Position numbers and translations under genes: made by a program. DNA of 8,847 nt from a virus. Taxonomy: Duplodnaviria; Heunggongvirae; Uroviricota; Caudoviricetes. The notes beneath the pieces were generated by a model. The model saw only the letters and a program-made list of their open reading frames with translations, was not told where the DNA came from and made no database searches. Every line of letters starts with the position of its first letter. The stretch's first letter is position 1. The stretch lies in IMG/VR virus record IMGVR_UViG_2724679236_000017; one strand, given 5' to 3'. Below, piece by piece: positions 1-8,847 of this stretch.

Positions 1-171
1 TCAACGGTCCTCCAGTTGCACACGATGAATATGTTTGCGTGGGTATGCGTTTTTATCTGCTGGCGGGTGCTCACACAATGCTTCCAGCTGCCCCTTAGAA
101 CCACCAGACAAATCCTGCAATGCAGCGCGCAGCTTTATGCGGGTATATTCCAACAAATACTCGTTACTCAT
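1..171 (-). CDS. small hypothetical protein (56 aa), distal member of nin-like operon
   Basis: Minus-strand ORF absent from the supplied track (below its size cutoff). ATG is the reverse complement of 169-171 and TGA stop the reverse complement of 1-3. Hand translation: MSNEYLLEYTRIKLRAALQDLSGGSKGQLEALCEHPPADKNAYPRKHIHRVQLEDR. Its ATG overlaps the TGA of the upstream gene (ATGA), the same coupling seen at 461-464. No family recognised. Confidence 0.45.
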   Translation of the reverse strand: MSNEYLLEYTRIKLRAALQDLSGGSKGQLEALCEHPPADKNAYPRKHIHRVQLEDR

Positions 172-464
172 CAGATGAATCCCTCGTTACGCCAGATGGC
201 CAACGTCCTTAAAACGCCCTCTGTGTGCATCAGTAATAAGGAATCACGCTCGTAATCTGTTTTTGTACGTCCGTCGATAGCATCGTGACACGCACTGCAG
301 GCGATAGCACCCTGCATATCGTGTGGTTTGATTGCTGTTCCGCATGTTCCGGCGAGGCGGTAGTGAGCCAGTACACTGGTTTCCGGATTGTGATTACACA
401 CACCGGGGATACGCACAGTACAAGCGCGACCGCGTGCAGCTTTTCTCAGGTCGATTTTTTTCAT
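171..464 (-). CDS. DUF1364 / YbcO-like Cys-rich (putative Zn-binding nuclease-like) lambdoid nin-region protein
   Basis: 97-aa ORF MKKIDLRKAARGRACTVRIPGVCNHNPETSVLAHYRLAG... with Cys at 15, 23, 41, 56, 59 and His residues. Overall sequence recalls the YbcO/DUF1364 family of lambdoid prophages (recognised from memory, not searched). Start overlaps the stop of the upstream gene (ATGA at 461-464). Confidence 0.8.
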   Translation of the reverse strand: MKKIDLRKAARGRACTVRIPGVCNHNPETSVLAHYRLAGTCGTAIKPHDMQGAIACSACHDAIDGRTKTDYERDSLLLMHTEGVLRTLAIWRNEGFI

Positions 465-1057
465 GATGTGTAATCCAGCAGCTGCGCGGCAGCATTTTCA
501 GCGGCCTCCTGAGAGGCAAACGTGCGGAACAAAATATAATTCCACAGCACATCTAAAACGGCTGAATACAGTTGACCGAACTCAAGATCGTCCATCGCTG
601 CAAACGAGATTGAACGAGGTACGCGCATCAAACTGCCGTCTGGCATCTGATGAACGTCATAAAACCCAGCTTCCATAATCGCCCATACGCGAAACGCCTC
701 GAACGACTTCACCGCACTGATATTCCCCGCGCGCTTTTCCGACTCATCGAGAAGATACTGATCAGCCAGCTCTGCCATGACATCACCGTGTCCACCGTAA
801 TACGCCAGTAACTTAACGTAGCCATGGACCAGTTCGCGCTCCGCAGGAGAAATAGCCCCTCCGGACGGATGCCAGTAATCAAAGCCCAGGTTTAGAAGTG
901 AGAAAAATTTACGATGAAACGCGGGATTACGCGCCTGTTTGAAATCTGCATACACAACAGCACCTGGTTTGACTCGTTCAGTCAACCAGCGTTGCGTGTC
1001 TGGTGTCGCGGGTATTAGCGAACCGCCGGATACCCTGATAAATGAATGCTGCGCCAT
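461..1057 (-). CDS. conserved prophage protein, DUF1367-like (function unknown)
   Basis: 198-aa ORF with GGAG Shine-Dalgarno about 6 nt upstream of the ATG on the minus strand. Size and sequence resemble the ~200-aa DUF1367 proteins that typically sit beside DUF1364 in nin regions (family call from memory). Translationally coupled to the downstream gene. Confidence 0.7.
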   Translation of the reverse strand: MAQHSFIRVSGGSLIPATPDTQRWLTERVKPGAVVYADFKQARNPAFHRKFFSLLNLGFDYWHPSGGAISPAERELVHGYVKLLAYYGGHGDVMAELADQYLLDESEKRAGNISAVKSFEAFRVWAIMEAGFYDVHQMPDGSLMRVPRSISFAAMDDLEFGQLYSAVLDVLWNYILFRTFASQEAAENAAAQLLDYTS

Positions 1058-1134
1058 GTTTAACTCCAGGTGGCGCGGCAGTGTTCAGAAAATGGTGCCG
1101 GGTGTTCAATCCAACACCGATATTATACCGTGTT

Positions 1135-1314
1135 TTACGCGTCAGGGGGTGTAATAGTATATCCAGCTATTTCTGCCAACTCGAGAAACGCCATCAGGCT
1201 GGCAATCCGTTCATCATCGGTCAGAACACGCACACCAACGATGTGTCCGTCCTTACGCTTGATAACAGCCCGGCATGTTTCCGGTAGTTCGCCTATAGAT
1301 TCTTGAATATTCAT
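1135..1314 (-). CDS. small hypothetical protein (59 aa)
   Basis: ORF absent from the track, found by hand translation: MNIQESIGELPETCRAVIKRKDGHIVGVRVLTDDERIASLMAFLELAEIAGYTITPPDA. GAGG Shine-Dalgarno lies 6-7 nt upstream of the ATG (reverse complement of 1312-1314). It fills the gap between two same-strand genes. No family recognised. Confidence 0.4.
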   Translation of the reverse strand: MNIQESIGELPETCRAVIKRKDGHIVGVRVLTDDERIASLMAFLELAEIAGYTITPPDA

Positions 1315-1428
1315 GTCTTCCTCTCAATGCTATAACCTGTATATTTATACAGCGTTTTATGGCATTTGTCATAACGCCAGATACAATGAGGAAATAATGA
1401 ACAATTATATTCACGTCGTGAATTTTAT

Positions 1429-1459
1429 TAAACGGTTTTATAGGGGATTAAACCGTTTA
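1429..1459. other. perfect 10-bp inverted repeat TAAACGGTTT-N11-AAACCGTTTA (candidate operator or weak terminator hairpin)
   Basis: Arms at 1429-1438 and 1450-1459 are exact reverse complements. The repeat lies 7 bp downstream of the stop of the 1466..2107 gene in an AT-rich spacer. Flanking U-tracts are weak on both strands, so a terminator role is uncertain. Confidence 0.35.
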
Positions 1460-1465
1460 TGGTCA

Positions 1466-2107
1466 TTATTTATCACTCCTGTAAATTGAAATTAACCATT
1501 TTCTAATCGTCGACGCTGCAGGTGGGTCAGAGTATTTCGCCACAAAAATACCGGATATGTATTGCACACCACGCGATAATGGCGCTGTCGGGTTTTCAGT
1601 AAAAAAACGATCAGCCAGTTCAATGGCTTCGCTTTTTAATCTGTGCTGTGGTCGTCCTCCGCCCTTAGTGCCAAGGTAACGCGCCAGTTGTTTGAAACGG
1701 TAGGCAATGATTAACGGTCGCATCATCATATTGAAAAAATCTCGGGCATCATTGTCAGCGCCTTGCGCTATCAACAGTGCAAAAAACAGATACGGGATTG
1801 TGTACACTTCAGGGGATATACGAATCCGTTCACAGGTTGGTGGAGCCAATTTAATAAGTAAGTCAGCCAGCGAGTTCCCCTTTTCTCCACGTTTGTAATA
1901 GCGATACAGCGGCCCGATATCGAGTTTACTCACATCGATTTCAGGATGCCCGGCAACGGCTGTACGTACCTCTTCTGCCAGAGCGTCAAATATTGCCCCG
2001 GTCCGTTCAAGATAGAGCCTCCGGGTCGAGCCGCGATCATCCAACGCCCGTAACATATCTAACCGGCTAACGAAAGTTTCAGGCCAGTCCTCATAGAAAG
2101 TTTTCAT
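1466..2107 (-). CDS. hypothetical protein (213 aa), first gene of nin-like operon
   Basis: The track gives 1466..2143, but the ATG at 2105-2107 (MKTFYEDWPETFVSRLDMLRAL...) is preceded by a GAGGT Shine-Dalgarno at good spacing, so the shorter start is preferred. No TM segment and no motif I recognise. Confidence 0.65.
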   Translation of the reverse strand: MKTFYEDWPETFVSRLDMLRALDDRGSTRRLYLERTGAIFDALAEEVRTAVAGHPEIDVSKLDIGPLYRYYKRGEKGNSLADLLIKLAPPTCERIRISPEVYTIPYLFFALLIAQGADNDARDFFNMMMRPLIIAYRFKQLARYLGTKGGGRPQHRLKSEAIELADRFFTENPTAPLSRGVQYISGIFVAKYSDPPAASTIRKWLISIYRSDK

Positions 2108-2350
2108 AATTACCTCGAATAATAAAAATTGCATTATTTGCACAATTTATTATTCGTTTTCACGCCGCTGAGTTCTATAAAAAAGAAAAAACCTCCGAGG
2201 CAGGGTTTTGTTATGGCTCGTTAAATCATCATCCAACTTTTTAGACTGAACGGTGATACTTGCAAATATTTGAAAATATGGGCTGGAACCCTATCTTATG
2301 ATGTGCCTGGTAATTTATATTGTTGGGTCTTTATATCATGAGGAATCACT
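2108..2350. promoter_or_regulatory. divergent intergenic/promoter region between the nin-like operon and the HTH-like gene
   Basis: 243-bp AT-rich spacer between divergent gene starts at 2107 (minus) and 2351 (plus). Candidate sigma70 elements for the plus-strand gene: TTGAAA (2270-2275), 16-bp spacer, TATCTT (2292-2297). On the minus strand a GGAGG followed by TTTTTTCTTTTTT (reverse complement of about 2171-2200) resembles the tail of a terminator upstream of the nin genes. Hexamer assignments are by eye. Confidence 0.3.
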
Positions 2351-2584
2351 ATGGGTACGTTAGGCAACCAGCCGTGCAGAAGTCGTTATGAGTTCGATGA
2401 TTTTAATTTAGCCAATCGAGCTGCGGCTCTTACTAAGTTAGCAAAAGAAACTGGTGTATCGGTGGATACCTTAATCAAACTTGAAATTGCTATGCAACTG
2501 AATCGGCTCAACTCCATCCTTATCAAAAACGGTGACAAGATGGACGAGAATCTGGCAGGTATTGGCGAGATACTGCAGAAGTGA
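2351..2584 (+). CDS. small putative helix-turn-helix DNA-binding protein (77 aa)
   Basis: GAGGA Shine-Dalgarno 6 nt upstream of the ATG. The segment AAALTKLAKETGVSVDTLIKLEIA has the spacing and composition of a helix-turn-helix (helix, TG turn, VSxxTLxKLE recognition helix). No family assigned. Confidence 0.5.
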   Translation: MGTLGNQPCRSRYEFDDFNLANRAAALTKLAKETGVSVDTLIKLEIAMQLNRLNSILIKNGDKMDENLAGIGEILQK

Positions 2585-2589
2585 GAGTA

Positions 2590-2607
2590 GCCCCTCTTCT
2601 GAGGGGT
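2590..2607 (+). terminator. weak hairpin after the HTH-like gene (possible intrinsic terminator)
   Basis: GCCCCTC-ttct-GAGGGGT stem (one G/U pair) lies 6 nt after the stop at 2584 and is followed by TGCACATTTAAAATATT. The U-tract is poor, so termination efficiency is doubtful. Confidence 0.25.
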
Positions 2608-2883
2608 TGCACATTTAAAATATTAAGGGCGGTCTTCTTCACGTACACAGTCACCTGGTCGAATCGTTCACGCATACTGAGTACAAAAAATCTCAACGAT
2701 AAGATCAGGTTAGACCTGTATTTTTCAGAAACATATAGACGCCTAAAAAAACACTAAACTCATGATTATCATGTATGTTTTTACTGGAAACATTGAACCA
2801 TCCACAATACAGCGTAAAAAGCAAGCAATTCACAAGATTTTAAAGTGATTTATCTGGAAGACTTTACTACTAACAGTTAATAT

Positions 2884-2928
2884 CGTACCAGAAGTGCAGA
2901 ATTTGCACTTTTACAGGAATGTGGTACG
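2884..2928. promoter_or_regulatory. nested inverted repeats upstream of the peptidase gene (candidate operator)
   Basis: Inner palindrome AAGTGCA-gaatt-TGCACTT (2892-2910) and outer arms CGTACCA (2884-2890) / TGGTACG (2922-2928). The site lies 55-100 bp upstream of the ATG at 2983 and overlaps possible promoter hexamers (TTTACA 2910-2915; TATATT 2941-2946). Confidence 0.4.
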
Positions 2929-2982
2929 GAACATGCTGTCTATATTTCAACCAATAATCGTAATGCAGTAACTGGAGGAGCT

Positions 2983-3471
2983 ATGGCTACCAACCCAAGA
3001 GAGCACGCCCGGCGAGTGCTGGACACGTTCTGGTGCGGGCGTGGTTTCCCTGTTGATCCAGCGAAAATTGCTCACGACATGGGATTAGATGTTTTTATTA
3101 CCGATCTTCCTGGGAAAGTTTCTGGCGCACTGATTAAACAAAAAGATCAAGATCCAGCGATCTTTCTAAACAGTGATGACAACAAAGTTCGTCAACGTTT
3201 TTCATGTGGGCATGAGTTGGGGCATTACATCGCCCGGCAAGCATCGCATAGCGATGAATATGAGTACGTTGATTTACGTGGCGAAACCGCAAGCGCCGGA
3301 ACGCATCCTGATGAAATTTTTGCGAACAAGTTCGCAGCAGAACTTCTGATGCCGGTTGATGAGGTCAGAAAACTGCACGCTGACGGCCAGCCAAGTTATA
3401 TAATGGCGCATTATTTTGGCGTATCTGACGATGCGATGACTTATCGTTTAAAGAACTTGAGGTTGGGGTAA
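2983..3471 (+). CDS. ImmA/IrrE-family (peptidase M78-like) zinc metallopeptidase
   Basis: 162-aa ORF with GGAGG Shine-Dalgarno 4 nt upstream. HEXXH zinc-binding motif (GHELGHY) is encoded at 3211-3225, followed by the ELLMP segment typical of the ImmA/IrrE fold. Protein size is typical of stand-alone ImmA-type peptidase domains. Confidence 0.85.
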   Translation: MATNPREHARRVLDTFWCGRGFPVDPAKIAHDMGLDVFITDLPGKVSGALIKQKDQDPAIFLNSDDNKVRQRFSCGHELGHYIARQASHSDEYEYVDLRGETASAGTHPDEIFANKFAAELLMPVDEVRKLHADGQPSYIMAHYFGVSDDAMTYRLKNLRLG

Positions 3472-3480
3472 CGCTTTAAA

Positions 3481-4086
3481 ATGCCATCGGATGACGATTT
3501 TAACAGCCGTTTCAAACAGGAAGTAGCACGCCGACTGAAGGATTCCCTCAACCTACACCGTCAGTTAGCAGAAGAGGTTGAACCGGAGGATGATGAAACT
3601 CCGGTTCAGTCTCCTGACGAAGCTTCACCTCAGCCAAAGATTTCGCACGCCCCCAAAAAAACGGCTGTCCGTATTCGCGGAATAGCCAGAAAAAGAGCTG
3701 CCGAAGCTCGCAAAATGGCTGTAGCTGCGTCTAGCAAAAGAACTCCAACTGCTACACCCTCTCAACAAGTCACCCGTACTGAGAGTAAAATATTGACCGA
3801 GTTCACATCTGTGAAACAGGTGAATTCACTTGATACCGAGCATGAGCGCAAACAACTCAACAACAAAGATTTTGAAGCAGAAATCGCTCTAAAAAAACGA
3901 TACGGGAAATGGTTCCTGATTATCCTTGCTTGCCAACTTCTGATAATGAATGGTGTATTTATTGCCGACGGCGCAGGTAAGCTGGAATTTGAGGATTTAA
4001 CACTACAGTTGTACATGGGCGGTACTTTGACAGAGGTATTCGGCCTCGTGCTGGTCGTGACAAAATACCTTTTTAAACGCAAGTAA
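3481..4086 (+). CDS. membrane-anchored protein with charged, low-complexity N-terminal region and two C-terminal TM helices
   Basis: 201-aa ORF starting 9 nt after the peptidase stop (operon arrangement). The N-terminal ~130 aa are rich in K/R/E/P/S/T and look disordered. The C-terminus carries two hydrophobic helices (WFLIILACQLLIMNGVFIA and TEVFGLVLVVTKYLF). No recognised family. Confidence 0.7.
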   Translation: MPSDDDFNSRFKQEVARRLKDSLNLHRQLAEEVEPEDDETPVQSPDEASPQPKISHAPKKTAVRIRGIARKRAAEARKMAVAASSKRTPTATPSQQVTRTESKILTEFTSVKQVNSLDTEHERKQLNNKDFEAEIALKKRYGKWFLIILACQLLIMNGVFIADGAGKLEFEDLTLQLYMGGTLTEVFGLVLVVTKYLFKRK

Positions 4087-4335
4087 CTCTCTCAGTCCAA
4101 CAGTCTTTCGAAGGCCTTGATCAAAGGGCCTTGATAAATTAGCAGTGCGTTGAAAACAGATAGTTATTCCCATCAGTTCCAACGTAATACACATCAAAAA
4201 AATCACCATTCTTTTGCTCTAACGTCAACACCTACTCTTAAAAAAATAATTCTCCAAGAATGAGAAAGTTATTGTGTGTATTAGATAAGATATGAGCTGA
4301 CACATCTATGGCGTGGAGCCAAATTTAATATGACA

Positions 4336-4359
4336 GTCCGCTCTGTGCCAGGAGCGGAC
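4336..4359. repeat. half copy (second hairpin only) of the conserved double-hairpin intergenic element
   Basis: GTCCGCTC-TGTGCCAG-GAGCGGAC is a perfect 8-bp stem with the same GTGCCA loop as the second hairpin of copies B, C and D. The upstream hairpin and linker are absent. Confidence 0.6.
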
Positions 4360-4660
4360 GTTGTAAAGTTTATTTGGAGAATAATGGTTAGAAGAACTAT
4401 GTAGATCATAGCCCTCTAAAGTCAGTAGTCTTACACCATATAAATGGTCATTTAGAGATAGTACACCACCTACAAAAAACGAGATAAAGCGTGCAAGCGG
4501 CATGAAGATACATAACTGCACTTGATGTTAGGATGAATACTGACACTCGCTTTGTAAAGATAAAGATGATCTTGAGGATGATTAGTTTATTAATTATCTC
4601 CAATGTTTGTTATTTTGTGATGATAAAGATTCTCTGGATTAATAGGATGGTAATTCAATT

Positions 4661-4688
4661 AAAAGAGACCTTATAGAAGGCCTCTTTT
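4661..4688 (-). terminator. intrinsic terminator for the 4713..5090 gene (possibly bidirectional)
   Basis: On the minus-strand RNA the stem GAGGCC/GGUCUC (one G/U pair) has loop UUCUAUAA and is followed by UUUUAAUUGAAUU, about 25 nt downstream of the stop at 4713. The plus strand forms the same stem followed by TTTT. Confidence 0.5.
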
Positions 4689-4712
4689 AAGTTATGAGAG
4701 CTGATTTTATAT

Positions 4713-5090
4713 TCAATAGAGTATTCTCATCGAAGAAATAACCTCATAAAATGTAAAGACAGCCAGCAAAAAAATACAGATAAAGATAAGGGAAATAGCA
4801 CACTTAACTAAGGACTGAATCCCCCGAGGTGTTCCCCATGGTTTAGACATTTGGGTTATAACCCAAATAAATAAGGCCATAAAACAGCAAACACCAGCCA
4901 ATCCGAGCAGAGATATTATGACAACTCCAAATAGATTTCCAACATCTAGTTTATCTGTTTTTGCAACCAGGGTTAACAAACCAGCAATAATAGTTGCTAT
5001 CGATATTCCCGCAATGGTTGTGAGATCAGCGATAACAGCCAGTTTTTCTTTAGTATTTCCTTGAGTAAAAACCTCTAAAATTGATTTCAT
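4713..5090 (-). CDS. small integral membrane protein (125 aa, about 3 TM helices)
   Basis: AGGTGG Shine-Dalgarno 9 nt upstream of the ATG on the minus strand. Three long hydrophobic segments. A perfect TATAAT (reverse complement of 5113-5118) lies upstream as a candidate -10. The gene has its own terminator. No recognised family. Confidence 0.65.
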   Translation of the reverse strand: MKSILEVFTQGNTKEKLAVIADLTTIAGISIATIIAGLLTLVAKTDKLDVGNLFGVVIISLLGLAGVCCFMALFIWVITQMSKPWGTPRGIQSLVKCAISLIFICIFLLAVFTFYEVISSMRILY

Positions 5091-5203
5091 GGAAAATAAC
5101 CACCTACTATCGATTATATTCAGGAACTTTTTATCATAACGATATCAGATAGATAAGGATATTGTAATATTTTGGATGATTTAAACTTACTTTTGTAACT
5201 CTA

Positions 5204-5271
5204 ATGTCCACTTTTCGCTCACAGCGGACCTTTAGCTCAGTTACCTCGTCCGCTTTGTGCCAGGAGCGGAC
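5204..5271. repeat. conserved double-hairpin intergenic element, copy B (68 bp)
   Basis: ATGTCCACTTTTCGCTCACAGCGGACCTTTAGCTCAGTTACCTCGTCCGCTTTGTGCCAGGAGCGGAC. About 84 percent identical to copy C by hand count. Two hairpins built on GTCCGCT/AGCGGAC arms. Lies between divergent gene starts. Confidence 0.7.
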
Positions 5272-5532
5272 GCTAACCTGATTGACGGGAAATCATATTA
5301 AGTCGGCATAAAAAATTAGAATATCTTTAGTGACTATTACTAATGTGTGTGTATAACTTATGCCTAATTTATCGCTCCGGCTGAGGGAATCTTGCCTCCG
5401 CTGTCACTTTTAGGTATGTTAACAACTATTTTTACAGTGGTTCCGAGTTATGCTATCTAACAGATTACTTGAACCGAGTCCGTTTATCAGTATGGCGTTT
5501 TATATGCTCAGAGTCCATCCAAGGAGTGACTT

Positions 5533-6009
5533 TTGAAATTTGAACAAATCTATAAAAATATTACTGGCCTTAGCTGTCCCATATTCGGGATTCAGTGGAA
5601 TGCTCCAATAATAGAAACTAACGAAGCGAAGAAGATCGTCATTTTTCTTGAGGACAAGCGCGTTCTTTTCAATCCTGTCGACATGGAGGGTGCTAGTCAT
5701 TGCACTTCGAGTGTTATCAACATTAGATCTGAATTGACTAAAGTCCTACAAGGTTTGCCGAGCGATTCACATTTAGCAAAACAATTAAGGAAAATGAGAA
5801 AAGCATGCCAAGAATTCTGTGACAGCGTTGGCTCCCCTCACTTTATCCAACTTGATCATCCTGTTCAAATATCCATACTTGAGCGAGCCCTTTTTAAACT
5901 GCGACAAAAGTGTGGTAACTCTCTGGCAGAAATAGCGGTTACCTATGGTCTTGATGTTGATGACGGATTGGCCAGTATTATCCCTTTTAATAATCCCAGT
6001 AACATATAG
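5533..6009 (+). CDS. hypothetical protein (158 aa), TTG start
   Basis: Consensus AAGGAG Shine-Dalgarno at 5521-5526, 6 nt before the TTG at 5533. No TM segments and no recognised motif. The gene sits alone between two repeat copies. Confidence 0.6.
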   Translation: MKFEQIYKNITGLSCPIFGIQWNAPIIETNEAKKIVIFLEDKRVLFNPVDMEGASHCTSSVINIRSELTKVLQGLPSDSHLAKQLRKMRKACQEFCDSVGSPHFIQLDHPVQISILERALFKLRQKCGNSLAEIAVTYGLDVDDGLASIIPFNNPSNI

Positions 6010-6102
6010 CAATGACTATGAATTTGCTTGCTGGATTAATTATCATGCAACCGACAGTTTTGGGTCGGAAGCGGTTAGCAAATTAGTCATTAGTGAGTCG
6101 TT

Positions 6103-6170
6103 ATGTCCGTTCATCGCTCACAGCGGACCTTCAGCTCAGGTAACTTGTCCGCTTCGTGCCAAAAGCGGAC
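6103..6170. repeat. conserved double-hairpin intergenic element, copy C (68 bp)
   Basis: ATGTCCGTTCATCGCTCACAGCGGACCTTCAGCTCAGGTAACTTGTCCGCTTCGTGCCAAAAGCGGAC. Lies between convergent gene ends (6009 plus, 6290 minus). Confidence 0.7.
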
Positions 6171-6232
6171 ATGTCAAAGCGCAGAGTGAATGGCTAAGTC
6201 TAGCTCATTAAAAATGTTCACTTCATGAAAAT

Positions 6233-6268
6233 GGCTGCAGCAAGAATCTATCTCACTGCGGCCTCTTT
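6233..6268. terminator. bidirectional intrinsic terminator between convergent genes
   Basis: GGCTGCAG-N15-CTGCGGCC stem (8 bp with one G/U pair on plus, one C/A mismatch on minus). Followed by TCTTTACAAT on the plus strand and AUUUUCAU on the minus strand, about 25 nt beyond the stop of the 6290..7045 gene. Confidence 0.45.
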
Positions 6269-6289
6269 ACAATAACGAAATTTTGCAAG

Positions 6290-7045
6290 CTATTCCTTGG
6301 CCTCTTTATTCTTCTCGCCATCGCCAATATAAATAAGATAGTCGTTTAAGGATATCCTTCCGGAGGGACCGGTCCATGTTATCAATCCGTTTTCACGAAG
6401 ATTAAATAATGCTTCCATGAACTCATTATCGTTAAAAGAATGATCTTCTGAGAACAGAATGTTCATTTTTCTCAATAGTTCTTCCACTTTAATCTTTTCA
6501 TATCGCCTTATCAGACTTAGTGCTCTACGACGCATTAAGACTGTAGGTACTGCTTGTGAACGAATGGTTTTTTGTATTCCACTATCAAGAACTTTCTTAA
6601 TCTTACTCTCTAATTCTTTGATTTTAGTTTCATTATCTCCATTGGACTTAAGCTTTTCATCAACGATACAAATAATCTCCTGACTAATGCGGTTCTTGAG
6701 TTTGTTTATTTTTTCTTCATTGTTGAGGATCTCATCAGAGCTTCCTGCATGGGGTTTTTTCCATATGTGCTGACGCATATCCGTTACCGTATCTCTCATC
6801 ATAGAGAATGTATCTGAATATAACTTGTCAAATATTTTTTCCAGCCGTTCGACACTTGCCTGGATGTCTTTTGCTGCTTTAGTTGTCTCTTTAGAAGCCT
6901 CATTCGACATTTTATAAAAAACAAAAGAAAGCCAAATAGCCCCAATGGCGAGTACTAATGAGGCTATTGTGGCAATAAAACCTATTATTGTTATTGCTGT
7001 ATCTAATGTACCTGCTGCATCTGTGACTACTGTTTCTGCTGCCAT
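6290..7045 (-). CDS. membrane-anchored protein with N-terminal TM segment and coiled-coil-like region (251 aa)
   Basis: GAGGA Shine-Dalgarno 3-4 nt upstream of the ATG. N-terminal hydrophobic stretch LDTAITIIGFIATIASLVLAIGAIWLSFVFY. A K/E-rich heptad-like middle (KINKLKNRISQEI..., KIKELESKIKKVL). C-terminal ~70 aa of unknown fold. No recognised family. Confidence 0.7.
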   Translation of the reverse strand: MAAETVVTDAAGTLDTAITIIGFIATIASLVLAIGAIWLSFVFYKMSNEASKETTKAAKDIQASVERLEKIFDKLYSDTFSMMRDTVTDMRQHIWKKPHAGSSDEILNNEEKINKLKNRISQEIICIVDEKLKSNGDNETKIKELESKIKKVLDSGIQKTIRSQAVPTVLMRRRALSLIRRYEKIKVEELLRKMNILFSEDHSFNDNEFMEALFNLRENGLITWTGPSGRISLNDYLIYIGDGEKNKEAKE

Positions 7046-7089
7046 ATATCCTCAATATTTAACCATACAGGGTAGCGTGTTTTAACCGC

Positions 7090-7125
7090 GGGGAAGTCGG
7101 GGTGGTGACACCCTGGCCTTACCCC
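7090..7125. other. GC-rich nested stem-loop in the putative 5' leader of the 6290..7045 gene
   Basis: GGGG-aagtcg-[GGGTG-gtga-CACCC]-tggcctta-CCCC: inner 5-bp stem with a 4-nt loop, flanked by a GGGG/CCCC outer stem. It stands out in AT-rich surroundings. A TATGAT -10 candidate (reverse complement of 7145-7150) would place it in the minus-strand leader. Confidence 0.3.
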
Positions 7126-7328
7126 AATTCCAGAGTATTTGTTTATCATACCATTGAAACTATTTAATTTTATCGAAAATTTTGTCAGAGCGTGACTGAA
7201 AAGTCTTCAGCACGTCAAGCAGATCGTCGCCGTTCAATTAGCACTGAACTTTTTCTTAGTGGGGGGCTGTGCAGTTGCGAAGTTATGCCCCAGTTCCTCA
7301 CTACATTCTAATTAAGCCGGCCAACTAA

Positions 7329-7390
7329 ATGTCCGCTCCTCGCTCACAGCGGACCTTCAGTTGTTCGTCCACTCCGTGCCAGGAGCGGAC
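7329..7390. repeat. conserved double-hairpin intergenic element, copy D (62 bp)
   Basis: ATGTCCGCTCCTCGCTCACAGCGGACCTTCAGTTGTTCGTCCACTCCGTGCCAGGAGCGGAC. The 11-bp termini ATGTCCGCTCC and GGAGCGGACAT are exact reverse complements. Lies between divergent gene starts. Confidence 0.7.
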
Positions 7391-7443
7391 ATTGATTATT
7401 CCTCTCTGTAAAAATCTTAATGCTAACTAGTGGGAACTATAAG

Positions 7444-8309
<866 letters not shown>

Positions 8310-8325
8310 CCAATATACGGCAGTA

Positions 8326-8847
8326 ATGAATATTTCGGGGATCGTGTTTGCTGCGGTCATGGTTACCATTAGTGTTCGCGTAGCAATGGAGATTGCCTAC
8401 TTATGCGTGGCCAGACAGAGTGATGTACTTTCATTGCAGAAAGACCAGCTGTTCGATTCCGGGATCTACATTCGTCAGGGAAAAACCGGCGTTAAGCAAA
8501 TCAAAGCCTGGTCGCCTCGTCTGCAGAAAGCGATAGCTCTGGCTCGTTCTCTGCCATTAAAAACGGGAATCAGTAGCCTGTTTGTGATTCATCAAACTAC
8601 CGGTGGCAAGTATACCCGTGATGGTTTTAACTCTCGTTGGCGTGATGTCAAAGCGGCAGCACAGGAAAAATATCCTCATCTGCAAATAGACTTCACATTT
8701 CATGATCTGAAAGCAAAAGGTATCTCTGATCTGGAAGGCAGCCTGGAAGAGAAGCAAGCAATTTCCGGGCATAAGAACCCACGACAGACAGCTGCCTATG
8801 ACCGAAAAGTTAAAGTAGTGCCCGTAGTTGGTGGCCAGAGAAAATGA
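8326..8847 (+). CDS. lambda-family tyrosine recombinase/integrase, C-terminal catalytic-domain fragment (5'-truncated, probable pseudogene or remnant)
   Basis: 173-aa ORF aligning by eye to the catalytic half of lambda Int: VRVAMEIA...ARQSDVL (Arg box), YIRQGKTGVK, FHDLKAKG (HxLR-like box) and GHKNPRQTAAYDRK (His and catalytic Tyr). The frame is closed upstream by TAG at 8293-8295, so the ~180-aa arm- and core-binding N-terminal domains are absent. No convincing Shine-Dalgarno. Confidence 0.75.
   Translation: MNISGIVFAAVMVTISVRVAMEIAYLCVARQSDVLSLQKDQLFDSGIYIRQGKTGVKQIKAWSPRLQKAIALARSLPLKTGISSLFVIHQTTGGKYTRDGFNSRWRDVKAAAQEKYPHLQIDFTFHDLKAKGISDLEGSLEEKQAISGHKNPRQTAAYDRKVKVVPVVGGQRK

Follow-up and report, generated by a model that had tools for sequence, protein, structure and literature searches.

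Near-obligate pairing of an M78 metallopeptidase gene with a gene for a conserved two-helix membrane protein, found in a degraded lambdoid prophage and carried as cargo by mobile elements and chromosomal islets

We analysed an 8,847-nucleotide stretch of DNA (hereafter, the window) from IMG/VR virus record IMGVR_UViG_2724679236_000017, a member of the Caudoviricetes. Our interest was in two adjacent genes on its plus strand, one for a zinc metallopeptidase of the M78 (ImmA/IrrE) type, at positions 2983 to 3471, and one for a membrane protein, at positions 3481 to 4086. The known role of M78 peptidases such as ImmA, IrrE and CapP is that of a switch, exerted by cleaving a repressor that binds DNA. 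An original prediction, made from the DNA letters alone, had singled out these two genes together with an upstream open reading frame (ORF) of 77 codons (2351 to 2584, plus strand), taken as a candidate helix-turn-helix (HTH) partner of the peptidase, and had placed the whole where a prophage would normally carry its immunity region. All three ORFs do lie at these positions, and the 77-amino-acid ORF ends 398 nucleotides before the peptidase start, close to the predicted distance of about 400 bp.

The first gene of the pair encodes a single-domain peptidase of 162 amino acids. The protein matched Pfam Peptidase_M78 (PF06114) over residues 32-157 with 64.9 bits (cut-off 22, E=7.7e-18), phrog_87 "metallo-protease" with E=3.9e-30 and the PADLOC capP profile with E=2.4e-25, over profile positions 3-151 of 242. 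A match to NCBIfam spr1629 concerned the peptidase part only and scored 25 bits against a cut-off of 335. The closest solved structure was that of CapP (7t5t, a chain of 291 amino acids), again for the peptidase core only (aligned residues 79-152). The HELGH active-site motif (H77, E78 and H81; positions 3211 to 3225) aligned to the zinc site of CapP, and E111 (3313-3315) to its third zinc ligand, which makes E111 the putative third ligand here. Among 40 distinct partner peptidases, down to 34% identity, conservation was at least 90% for H77 and E111 and at least 97% for E78 and H81. This showed that the active site is intact, and the peptidase is predicted to be catalytically competent. The proposed ImmA/IrrE-type HEXXH peptidase was thus borne out, both by the PF06114 match and by the HELGH/E111 zinc site.

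The second gene begins 9 nucleotides past the peptidase stop codon, in the same reading frame, and encodes an inner-membrane protein of 201 amino acids, the founding member of an unannotated two-helix family. It matched nothing in NCBIfam, in Pfam even at E<=10 or in PADLOC-DB v2 at E<=0.01, and a Foldseek search against BFVD gave no significant fold relative; it did match phrog_5346. In the AlphaFold2 model, computed with 60 family members, two cytoplasmic helices (4-32 and 59-84) are joined by low-confidence linkers, and a long helix (119-164) together with a further one (172-197) forms a membrane hairpin. Hydropathy and charge pointed to a topology with both termini in the cytoplasm, the loop having one positive and four negative residues and the tail, KYLFKRK, four positive ones. 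The first transmembrane (TM) helix (TM1; amino acids 144-162, positions 3910 to 3966) is strongly hydrophobic, exceeding 1.6 in a 19-residue Kyte-Doolittle window with a predicted local distance difference test score (pLDDT) >90, and has conserved polar residues at Q152 and N157. The second (TM2; amino acids 176-196, positions 4006 to 4068) is less hydrophobic, with G, T and E inside, and ends in the nearly invariant motif GGTLTEVFGLVLVVTKYLF. Hydropathy, charge and model thus agreed on the two C-terminal TM helices that had been predicted 9 nucleotides downstream of the peptidase gene; the N-terminal tail is partly disordered.

Conservation in this protein is concentrated in its C-terminal half, which was invariant among 48 homologues, the N-terminal region varying in length. 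The family core runs from a juxtamembrane LD...D...D..LK..Y through IL..QL..MN.VF in TM1 to a TM2 ending in GGTL.EVFG.VLV.T.YLF. Columns of the cytoplasmic juxtamembrane motif (amino acids 117-143, positions 3829 to 3909), which reads LD..(E).R..LNN.DFEAEI.LKK.YGKW, were invariant or nearly so in two alignments (A1 and A3). Within the family, conservation is highest in TM2. Together with its terminal motif it includes T182, E185, G188, L197 and F198 and is invariant within Enterobacterales; in the family at large, these five residues and Q152 are nearly invariant, and L197 and F198 were invariant across 60 diverse members. The high conservation of TM2 and the buried polar residues suggest that the hairpin is under strong constraint and serves as more than an anchor.

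The membrane-protein family was then followed across sequence collections. A profile search of 1.84 billion representatives of 50% identity clusters returned 690 representatives at E<=1e-3 and 184 at E<=1e-10, the matches listed being 49-236 amino acids in size. Among the 48 homologues mentioned above, nearly all of those with source names came from Enterobacterales. About 100 loci were taken from species genomes, metagenomes, viral contigs and assemblies, and their ORFs were scored with hidden Markov models of both families. A separate M78 gene lay directly upstream, on the same strand, of 80 of the 87 TM-family ORFs. The seven others comprised one fusion (L048), one ORF with a dCTP-deaminase-like gene upstream (L029), the second fragment of a frameshifted gene and four ORFs without upstream sequence. 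The M78 gene was therefore present in 80/82 informative cases, from several phyla. Named loci came from ten Enterobacterales genera and from Thalassotalea, Gallibacterium, Microbulbifer, Desulfuromonas and a Rhodococcus metagenome-assembled genome. The intergenic gap was between -26 and +17 nucleotides in 58 of 60 distinct pairs. Moreover, pairwise identities of the peptidases correlated with those of the membrane proteins (r=0.84), a value matched by none of 999 permutations. No recurrent third gene, HTH or other, accompanied the pair among the ~100 loci. Among the loci examined, an HTH gene next to the pair was noted just once, in a Gram-positive-type locus (L088, 3518-4270): it follows directly downstream and encodes a 250-amino-acid protein of the XRE family (HTH_3).

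Collectively, these data show a near-obligate gene pairing and co-evolution, with no HTH partner, and the two genes are translationally coupled. The tight link that the original prediction had drawn between peptidase and membrane-protein genes was confirmed by this check of co-conservation. We found no description of an M78-plus-membrane-protein pair in the literature searched. The pairing is real and widespread, apparently undescribed, and a variation on the M78 partner-switch theme.

A few loci depart from the common arrangement. In L048 (2384-3199), a single protein of 271 amino acids has the M78 domain directly joined to the juxtamembrane motif and hairpin. In its sibling L044 (2017-2852), a 20-nucleotide insertion introduces a stop codon, and the TM part is left with no start codon; since this insertion disrupts the TM part, the L048 fusion looks like the intact state. 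In L029 (691-1748), the peptidase position is occupied by a dCTP-deaminase-like gene (PF22769, E=9.2e-25) that overlaps the TM gene by 4 nucleotides. Finally, E. coli AR_451 (L012, 2782-4045) and similar strains have an IS1 element in the 3' end of the TM gene, which yields a 171-amino-acid protein devoid of TM2, and the peptidase gene is intact. It follows that strains with the peptidase can tolerate losing the membrane protein. These natural insertions argue that the protease without its partner is not lethal, and they fit the membrane protein as an effector rather than as the inhibitor of a toxic protease.

Both prophages and small chromosomal islets carry the cassette as cargo. In lambdoid prophages the pair adjoins nin genes; in Mu-like phages it sits between mor and the holin/endolysin genes (L010 and L052), a slot common to four Mu-like contigs; and in a P2-like prophage it lies at the end, adjoining gpD. 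Further pairs were found after sucD and beside an ars operon. In various loci, the neighbours were a type IIG restriction-modification enzyme, pairs of the VapBC-like and RelE/ParE-like kinds, IS1595 or integrases; in L005 and L006, the cassette has other toxin-antitoxin pairs beside it. Apparently ordinary chromosomal neighbourhoods hold the pair as well, one of them beside spore-germination genes. On two metagenome contigs (L015 and L016), the two genes stand alone between a cysD-like (PAPS_reduct) and a cysN-like (GTP_EFTU) ORF, which looks like a minimal cassette inserted into a housekeeping operon.

The cassette also has upstream DNA of its own (2690 to 2982, plus strand). In the otherwise collinear locus of E. 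whittamii, homology to the window is lost at ~2195-2690, where the DNA is unrelated, and is back from ~2690, near perfect up to the peptidase start. Three elements can be read in this region. A terminator-like hairpin, including a run of T, is present at 2706-2718; AAGTGCAGAATTTGCACTT, which is a perfect palindrome, occupies 2892-2910, 76 nucleotides upstream of the peptidase start; and GGAGGAG at 2974-2980 provides a Shine-Dalgarno sequence. We saw no strong sigma-70 consensus in 2690-2982, and Rfam gave no hit at E<=1 for an RNA element in the 398-nucleotide gap upstream of the peptidase gene. The pattern TGCA-N5-TGCA occurs twice in the window (2130-2142 and 2895-2907) vs 0.24 copies expected. 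The first copy is inside an 18+18-nucleotide inverted repeat (2116-2156), directly upstream of a divergent gene for a 213-amino-acid protein (1466-2107, minus strand), and both copies are kept in E. whittamii. A shared operator looked attractive at first and now seems doubtful: the pattern is not kept upstream of the peptidase gene in Leclercia or Buttiauxella, its first copy belongs to the 213-amino-acid backbone gene, and more copies exist elsewhere in the prophage.

We next turn to the 77-amino-acid ORF. It is a real conserved protein, as two homologues, also 77 amino acids long, share 52-53% identity with it, and so the non-coding status that would have counted against the original prediction does not apply. 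Its family is tiny; the N-terminal MGTLGNQ is invariant, and the long second helix, LEIxMQLNRLNSILIExGD..DENLAGIG, is conserved. No HTH could be recognised: the best Pfam match under lenient thresholds had E=0.13, and the best Foldseek match against the PDB had E=3.4, with a few ribbon-helix-helix proteins among the insignificant matches. AlphaFold2 predicted a hairpin of two long helices (12-34 and 38-75) with a pLDDT of 84. The ORF was seen in one phage record only; it is missing from the E. whittamii locus and from every other pair locus. Another prophage carries the 52%-identical homologue (P0204), close to int/ea8.5 and with no ImmA in the vicinity. Both in the window and in L086, most neighbouring genes run opposite to the 77-amino-acid gene, an orientation typical of phage cargo genes that were acquired independently. 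We thus dismissed the idea of an HTH-like partner, for which neither Pfam nor Foldseek, nor the two-helix model, nor the distribution of the gene gave support, and regard the ORF as an adjacent, independent small cargo gene outside the cassette. The 213-amino-acid gene was likewise considered as an ImmR-like regulator and rejected. It had no Pfam hit, and its K. oxytoca homologue is an ordinary nin-region gene of a prophage without the ImmA-TM pair.

The wider setting is that of a degraded lambdoid prophage. Positions 5-4359 of the window correspond, at 97.6% overall identity, to a lambdoid prophage of hundreds of complete E. coli genomes, and the 2-kb region of the finding is present at 99% identity or more in 416 of them. 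The pair was found in ~430 complete E. coli genomes, prominently in ST131-labelled strains, and many of the prophage-carrying strains among those listed are labelled O25b:H4-ST131. In intact E. coli relatives, the pair has the replication genes on one side and Q and the nin-type genes (DUF1367, DUF1364/YbcO) on the other, and is transcribed in the direction opposite to theirs; in the window, too, it runs against the phage operon. The cI-like HTH, cro-like and YdaT genes of the intact prophage are ~10 kb from the pair. The window has other DNA in place of the early region, and of the integrase only the C-terminal part is left (PF00589; compare L099). It is because the early region is deleted that the pair seems to occupy the immunity position; the placement given in the original prediction was an artefact of prophage degradation, and the location of the pair is shown to be cargo-like. 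Related prophages on E. coli viral contigs (L068-L076) have no ImmA-TM pair and keep a stub of 25-58 codons from the 3' end of the TM gene, in some cases with internal stop codons and mostly between LprI-family and ORF6N genes. These stubs indicate that the site exchanges cargo.

The ORFs that stand in place of the early region form a cargo cluster from 4360 to 8847. They encode a 125-amino-acid hydrophobic protein (4713-5090, minus strand), a DUF6650 protein (5533-6009), a 251-amino-acid protein (6290-7045, minus strand), the known defence protein PD-T4-3 (7476-8309; PADLOC E=4.7e-137) and the C-terminal fragment of the same prophage's integrase (8326-8847, PF00589). The whole 4360-8847 arrangement was found in one place in none of the E. 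coli genomes of the collection searched.

Clustered regularly interspaced short palindromic repeat (CRISPR) arrays were seen to match the prophage. In E. coli GCM39-10-2-9-3-1, a type I-E array has a 32-nucleotide spacer (L100, 601-633) identical to positions 3046-3077, within the peptidase gene, and this protospacer has a canonical ATG protospacer-adjacent motif alongside. The adjacent spacer agrees at 29/32 positions with the DUF1364 gene of this prophage family. In a second strain, an annotated CRISPR contains a 39-nucleotide match (94.9%) to positions 4037-4075 of the window.

A perfect LexA-box palindrome, CTGTATATTTATACAG, is present at 1337-1352 and overlaps a sigma-70-like promoter (aTGACA-17-TATAAA; 1314-1431, minus strand). 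It lies 22 nucleotides upstream of the start codon of a 59-amino-acid ORF (1135-1314, minus strand) that belongs to phrog_340, a group of no known function. The ORF has the look of a small prophage-backbone gene under SOS control and may encode an antirepressor. No LexA box was found upstream of the peptidase gene, the sole perfect box of the window serving this other gene on the other strand. The box, rather than ImmA, is the obvious DNA-damage input of the window.

How does the pair compare with known M78 systems? ImmA/ImmR of ICEBs1 and phage phi105 (Bacillus) is similar in size and setting, with a short single-domain HEXXH peptidase of ~160-170 amino acids on a mobile element and a partner encoded by the neighbouring gene. 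Here, however, the partner is a downstream two-helix membrane protein instead of an XRE/cI-type repressor, and the pair lies outside the immunity or int-xis control region, with no conserved DNA-binding component. Indeed, none of the 77-, 201- and 213-amino-acid proteins had an HTH hit in Pfam. CapP gave the best PADLOC profile match and the closest structure, with the same zinc-site residues. CapP is made of three domains, namely a peptidase, an HTH-like linker and, C-terminally, a GAF domain (10.1101/2022.04.27.489752), whereas the present protein is a peptidase domain alone, 162 amino acids long vs 291 in the solved chain. PADLOC, run on the neighbouring proteins, found neither a capH gene nor a downstream defence operon beside the pair. 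In both CapP and IrrE, single-stranded DNA (ssDNA) is bound in a groove between the peptidase and GAF domains (PMC13228613); without a GAF domain, a groove of the CapP/IrrE type cannot exist here. The likeness to IrrE (PprI) and DdrO of Deinococcus lies in the M78 catalytic domain, site-specific cleavage of a cognate partner being a property of IrrE, and we found no GAF or HTH-like domain, no DdrO-like repressor and no regulon. Lacking the HTH-like linker and the GAF domain, the peptidase is thus neither a CapP nor an IrrE, and the CapP precedent cited in the original prediction does not extend to its architecture. Predicted Xre-COG2856 systems and PD-lambda-2, the latter composed of a HigB-like protein, an Xre-peptidase fusion and a third gene, also place an M78/COG2856 peptidase in a small mobile conflict cassette. 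In PD-lambda-2, the peptidase protein can be toxic and take part in phage defence (PMC9519451). The present pair differs from them in that neither a HigB-like toxin nor an Xre domain, whether fused or adjacent, is present, and the membrane partner is unique to its family. In the absence of an HTH partner, the locus fails to show the defining features of ImmA/ImmR, CapP/CapH or Xre-COG2856.

Other systems are comparable by function only. RexA/RexB of lambda is a two-component abortive-infection system in which RexB has four TM helices, and Lit of e14 is a single membrane-associated HEXXH protease of family U49 that cleaves EF-Tu. With both, the analogy is that of a prophage-borne cytoplasmic or peripheral component paired with, or attached to, an inner-membrane one, with expression expected in the lysogen; there is no relationship in sequence or fold. 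Bacterial gasdermins are soluble until an adjacent protease removes an inhibitory segment, after which they permeabilise membranes. They provide an analogy for the reading we prefer below, with the difference that the folds are unrelated, that the present protein is predicted to be inserted in the membrane from the start and that its cleavage is hypothetical.

A small, coupled two-gene cassette with a patchy distribution over mobile elements and chromosomal islets has the generic layout of a toxin-antitoxin or abortive-infection system. Our tentative preference is that positions 2983-4086, with ~290 nucleotides of their own upstream DNA, form an autonomous two-gene conflict cassette of this type, in which the peptidase would act on or with its membrane partner. 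With ImmA, IrrE and CapP alike, the protein that is cleaved is encoded by a neighbouring gene (10.1101/2022.04.27.489752; PMC13228613). By analogy with ImmA/ImmR, IrrE/DdrO and CapP/CapH, the membrane protein would be the cognate partner, and probably the substrate, taking the place that the repressor (ImmR, DdrO or CapH) has in known M78 pairs. The peptidase may dock on the conserved cytoplasmic face made up of the juxtamembrane helix and the C-terminal YLF motif. Infection or another stress would then trigger cutting of the cytoplasmic tail at or near the juxtamembrane motif, and the hairpin thus released, which has polar residues (Q, N, T and E) within the bilayer, would oligomerise and depolarise the membrane. 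Growth arrest would follow, amounting to abortive infection or exclusion, with addiction of the toxin-antitoxin type as a possible, even likely, side property. What we infer in this scheme is that the two proteins touch, in which direction proteolysis acts, what triggers it and which phenotype results. In its most specific form, it would be a second, non-transcriptional mode of ImmA-like action, a minimal M78 protease cleaving its cognate two-helix protein on a stress or infection cue and so releasing a depolarising hairpin; we regard that form as possible and rather doubtful. Such a protease-gated effector would span lambdoid, Mu-like and P2-like prophages and chromosomal islets of Proteobacteria, Actinobacteria and Firmicutes.

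Several observations weigh against this cleavage scheme. The N-terminal tail that would have to be removed varies in length and sequence across the family, and therefore any inhibitory role of the tail would be independent of its sequence. TM2 is only moderately hydrophobic by hydropathy, and the membrane protein resembles no effector modelled in PADLOC. There was no clear defence-island signal, the 125 neighbours of 35 loci (the two nearest per side) including one type IIG enzyme and a few methyltransferase hits. Lastly, the dCTP-deaminase-like partner of L029 fits better with an enzyme as the output and the membrane protein as the sensor than with a protease that activates a pore. This opposite logic is the main rival, and we consider it a possibility of modest weight. 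The membrane protein would be a sensor, anchor or regulator whose hairpin gates the protease at the inner membrane, until phage DNA entry, depolarisation or envelope damage frees it to cut a host or phage protein, functionally like Lit. The enzyme partner indeed appears exchangeable in L029; the L048 fusion would be a permanent tether of the protease to the hairpin, with the variable N-terminal tail dispensable; and the strongly conserved hairpin could be the sensing element. Besides, the Xre-M78 fusion PD-lambda-2B is toxic when expressed alone, and M78 peptidases can therefore act as effectors (PMC9519451). However, the partner swap is known from one short metagenomic contig, and known M78 peptidases of such size cleave the product of a neighbour, not unrelated targets. 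The strains with IS1 in the TM gene also keep an intact peptidase gene, so that an untethered protease would not be lethal, unless it is inactive without its partner. The cleavage and sensor schemes are not separable computationally.

Less likely than these two are selfish addiction, repressor cleavage and a role in lysis timing. A selfish pair without any role in phage defence, in which a stable membrane toxin is inactivated by a co-translated proteolytic antitoxin and loss of the cassette kills, seems unlikely to us. It would agree with the putative antitoxin gene coming first, with the overlapping or nearly overlapping genes and with the scatter of single cassettes, including within housekeeping operons (cysD-like/cysN-like, after sucD) and near IS1595 and integrases; toxin-antitoxin neighbours in L005 and L006 and the weak defence-island enrichment point the same way. 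On the other hand, a catalytic antitoxin would need to be less stable than its toxin, which nothing suggests, and a fusion of a toxin with the very antitoxin that degrades it would be awkward. The recurrent fixed cargo slots in Mu-like, P2-like and lambdoid prophages fit better with a function useful to the lysogen. We hold as very improbable the regulatory explanation contained in the original prediction, namely that the peptidase is an anti-repressor cleaving the 77-amino-acid protein or a cI-like protein, the membrane protein being a controlled effector or a sensor. The repressor-cleaving activity common to ImmA, IrrE and CapP (10.1101/2022.04.27.489752), the palindrome 76 nucleotides upstream of the peptidase start and the XRE-type gene of L088 speak for it. 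But not one conserved HTH gene went with the pair in ~100 loci, many of which lie outside mobile elements that have a repressor, and the 77-amino-acid ORF, with no HTH signal, is absent from E. whittamii and found elsewhere without ImmA. The intact prophage also has its own cI/cro/YdaT region 10 kb away, and the perfect LexA box over the promoter of the 59-amino-acid gene is a more obvious SOS input. The slimmest chance is that of an accessory to lysis timing, of the antiholin or holin-regulator type, as might be suggested by the small protein with two TM helices and by the position of the Mu-like pairs between mor and holin/endolysin (L010, L052), the slot shared by four contigs. Yet the Mu-like carriers have holins of their own that Pfam recognises (Holin_2-3, GTA_holin_3TM), most loci have no lysis genes nearby, and the pair of the window is antiparallel to Q and the late genes, apart from them and not beside lysis genes. 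A common lysis-accessory protein without co-conservation with the peptidase, an outcome named in the original prediction as one that would refute it, is not what we observed, as the membrane protein matched no holin family and M78 genes lay upstream in all but two of the informative cases.

A large M78 subfamily is thus locked to a conserved membrane protein, without a repressor. The membrane family comprises 690 clusters at 50% identity, spread over several phyla and three prophage types, and is covered by no Pfam, NCBIfam or PADLOC model. An ImmA/IrrE gene that stands alone in a prophage is no marker of an immunity module, nor is the nearest small ORF its repressor. If the peptidase does cleave or gate its partner, this would give a post-translational, membrane-directed output to a protease family thought to be transcriptional in its effects. 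It would also provide a function for a common "hypothetical protein" pair of E. coli and make two compact genes a candidate system for abortive infection, exclusion or addiction.

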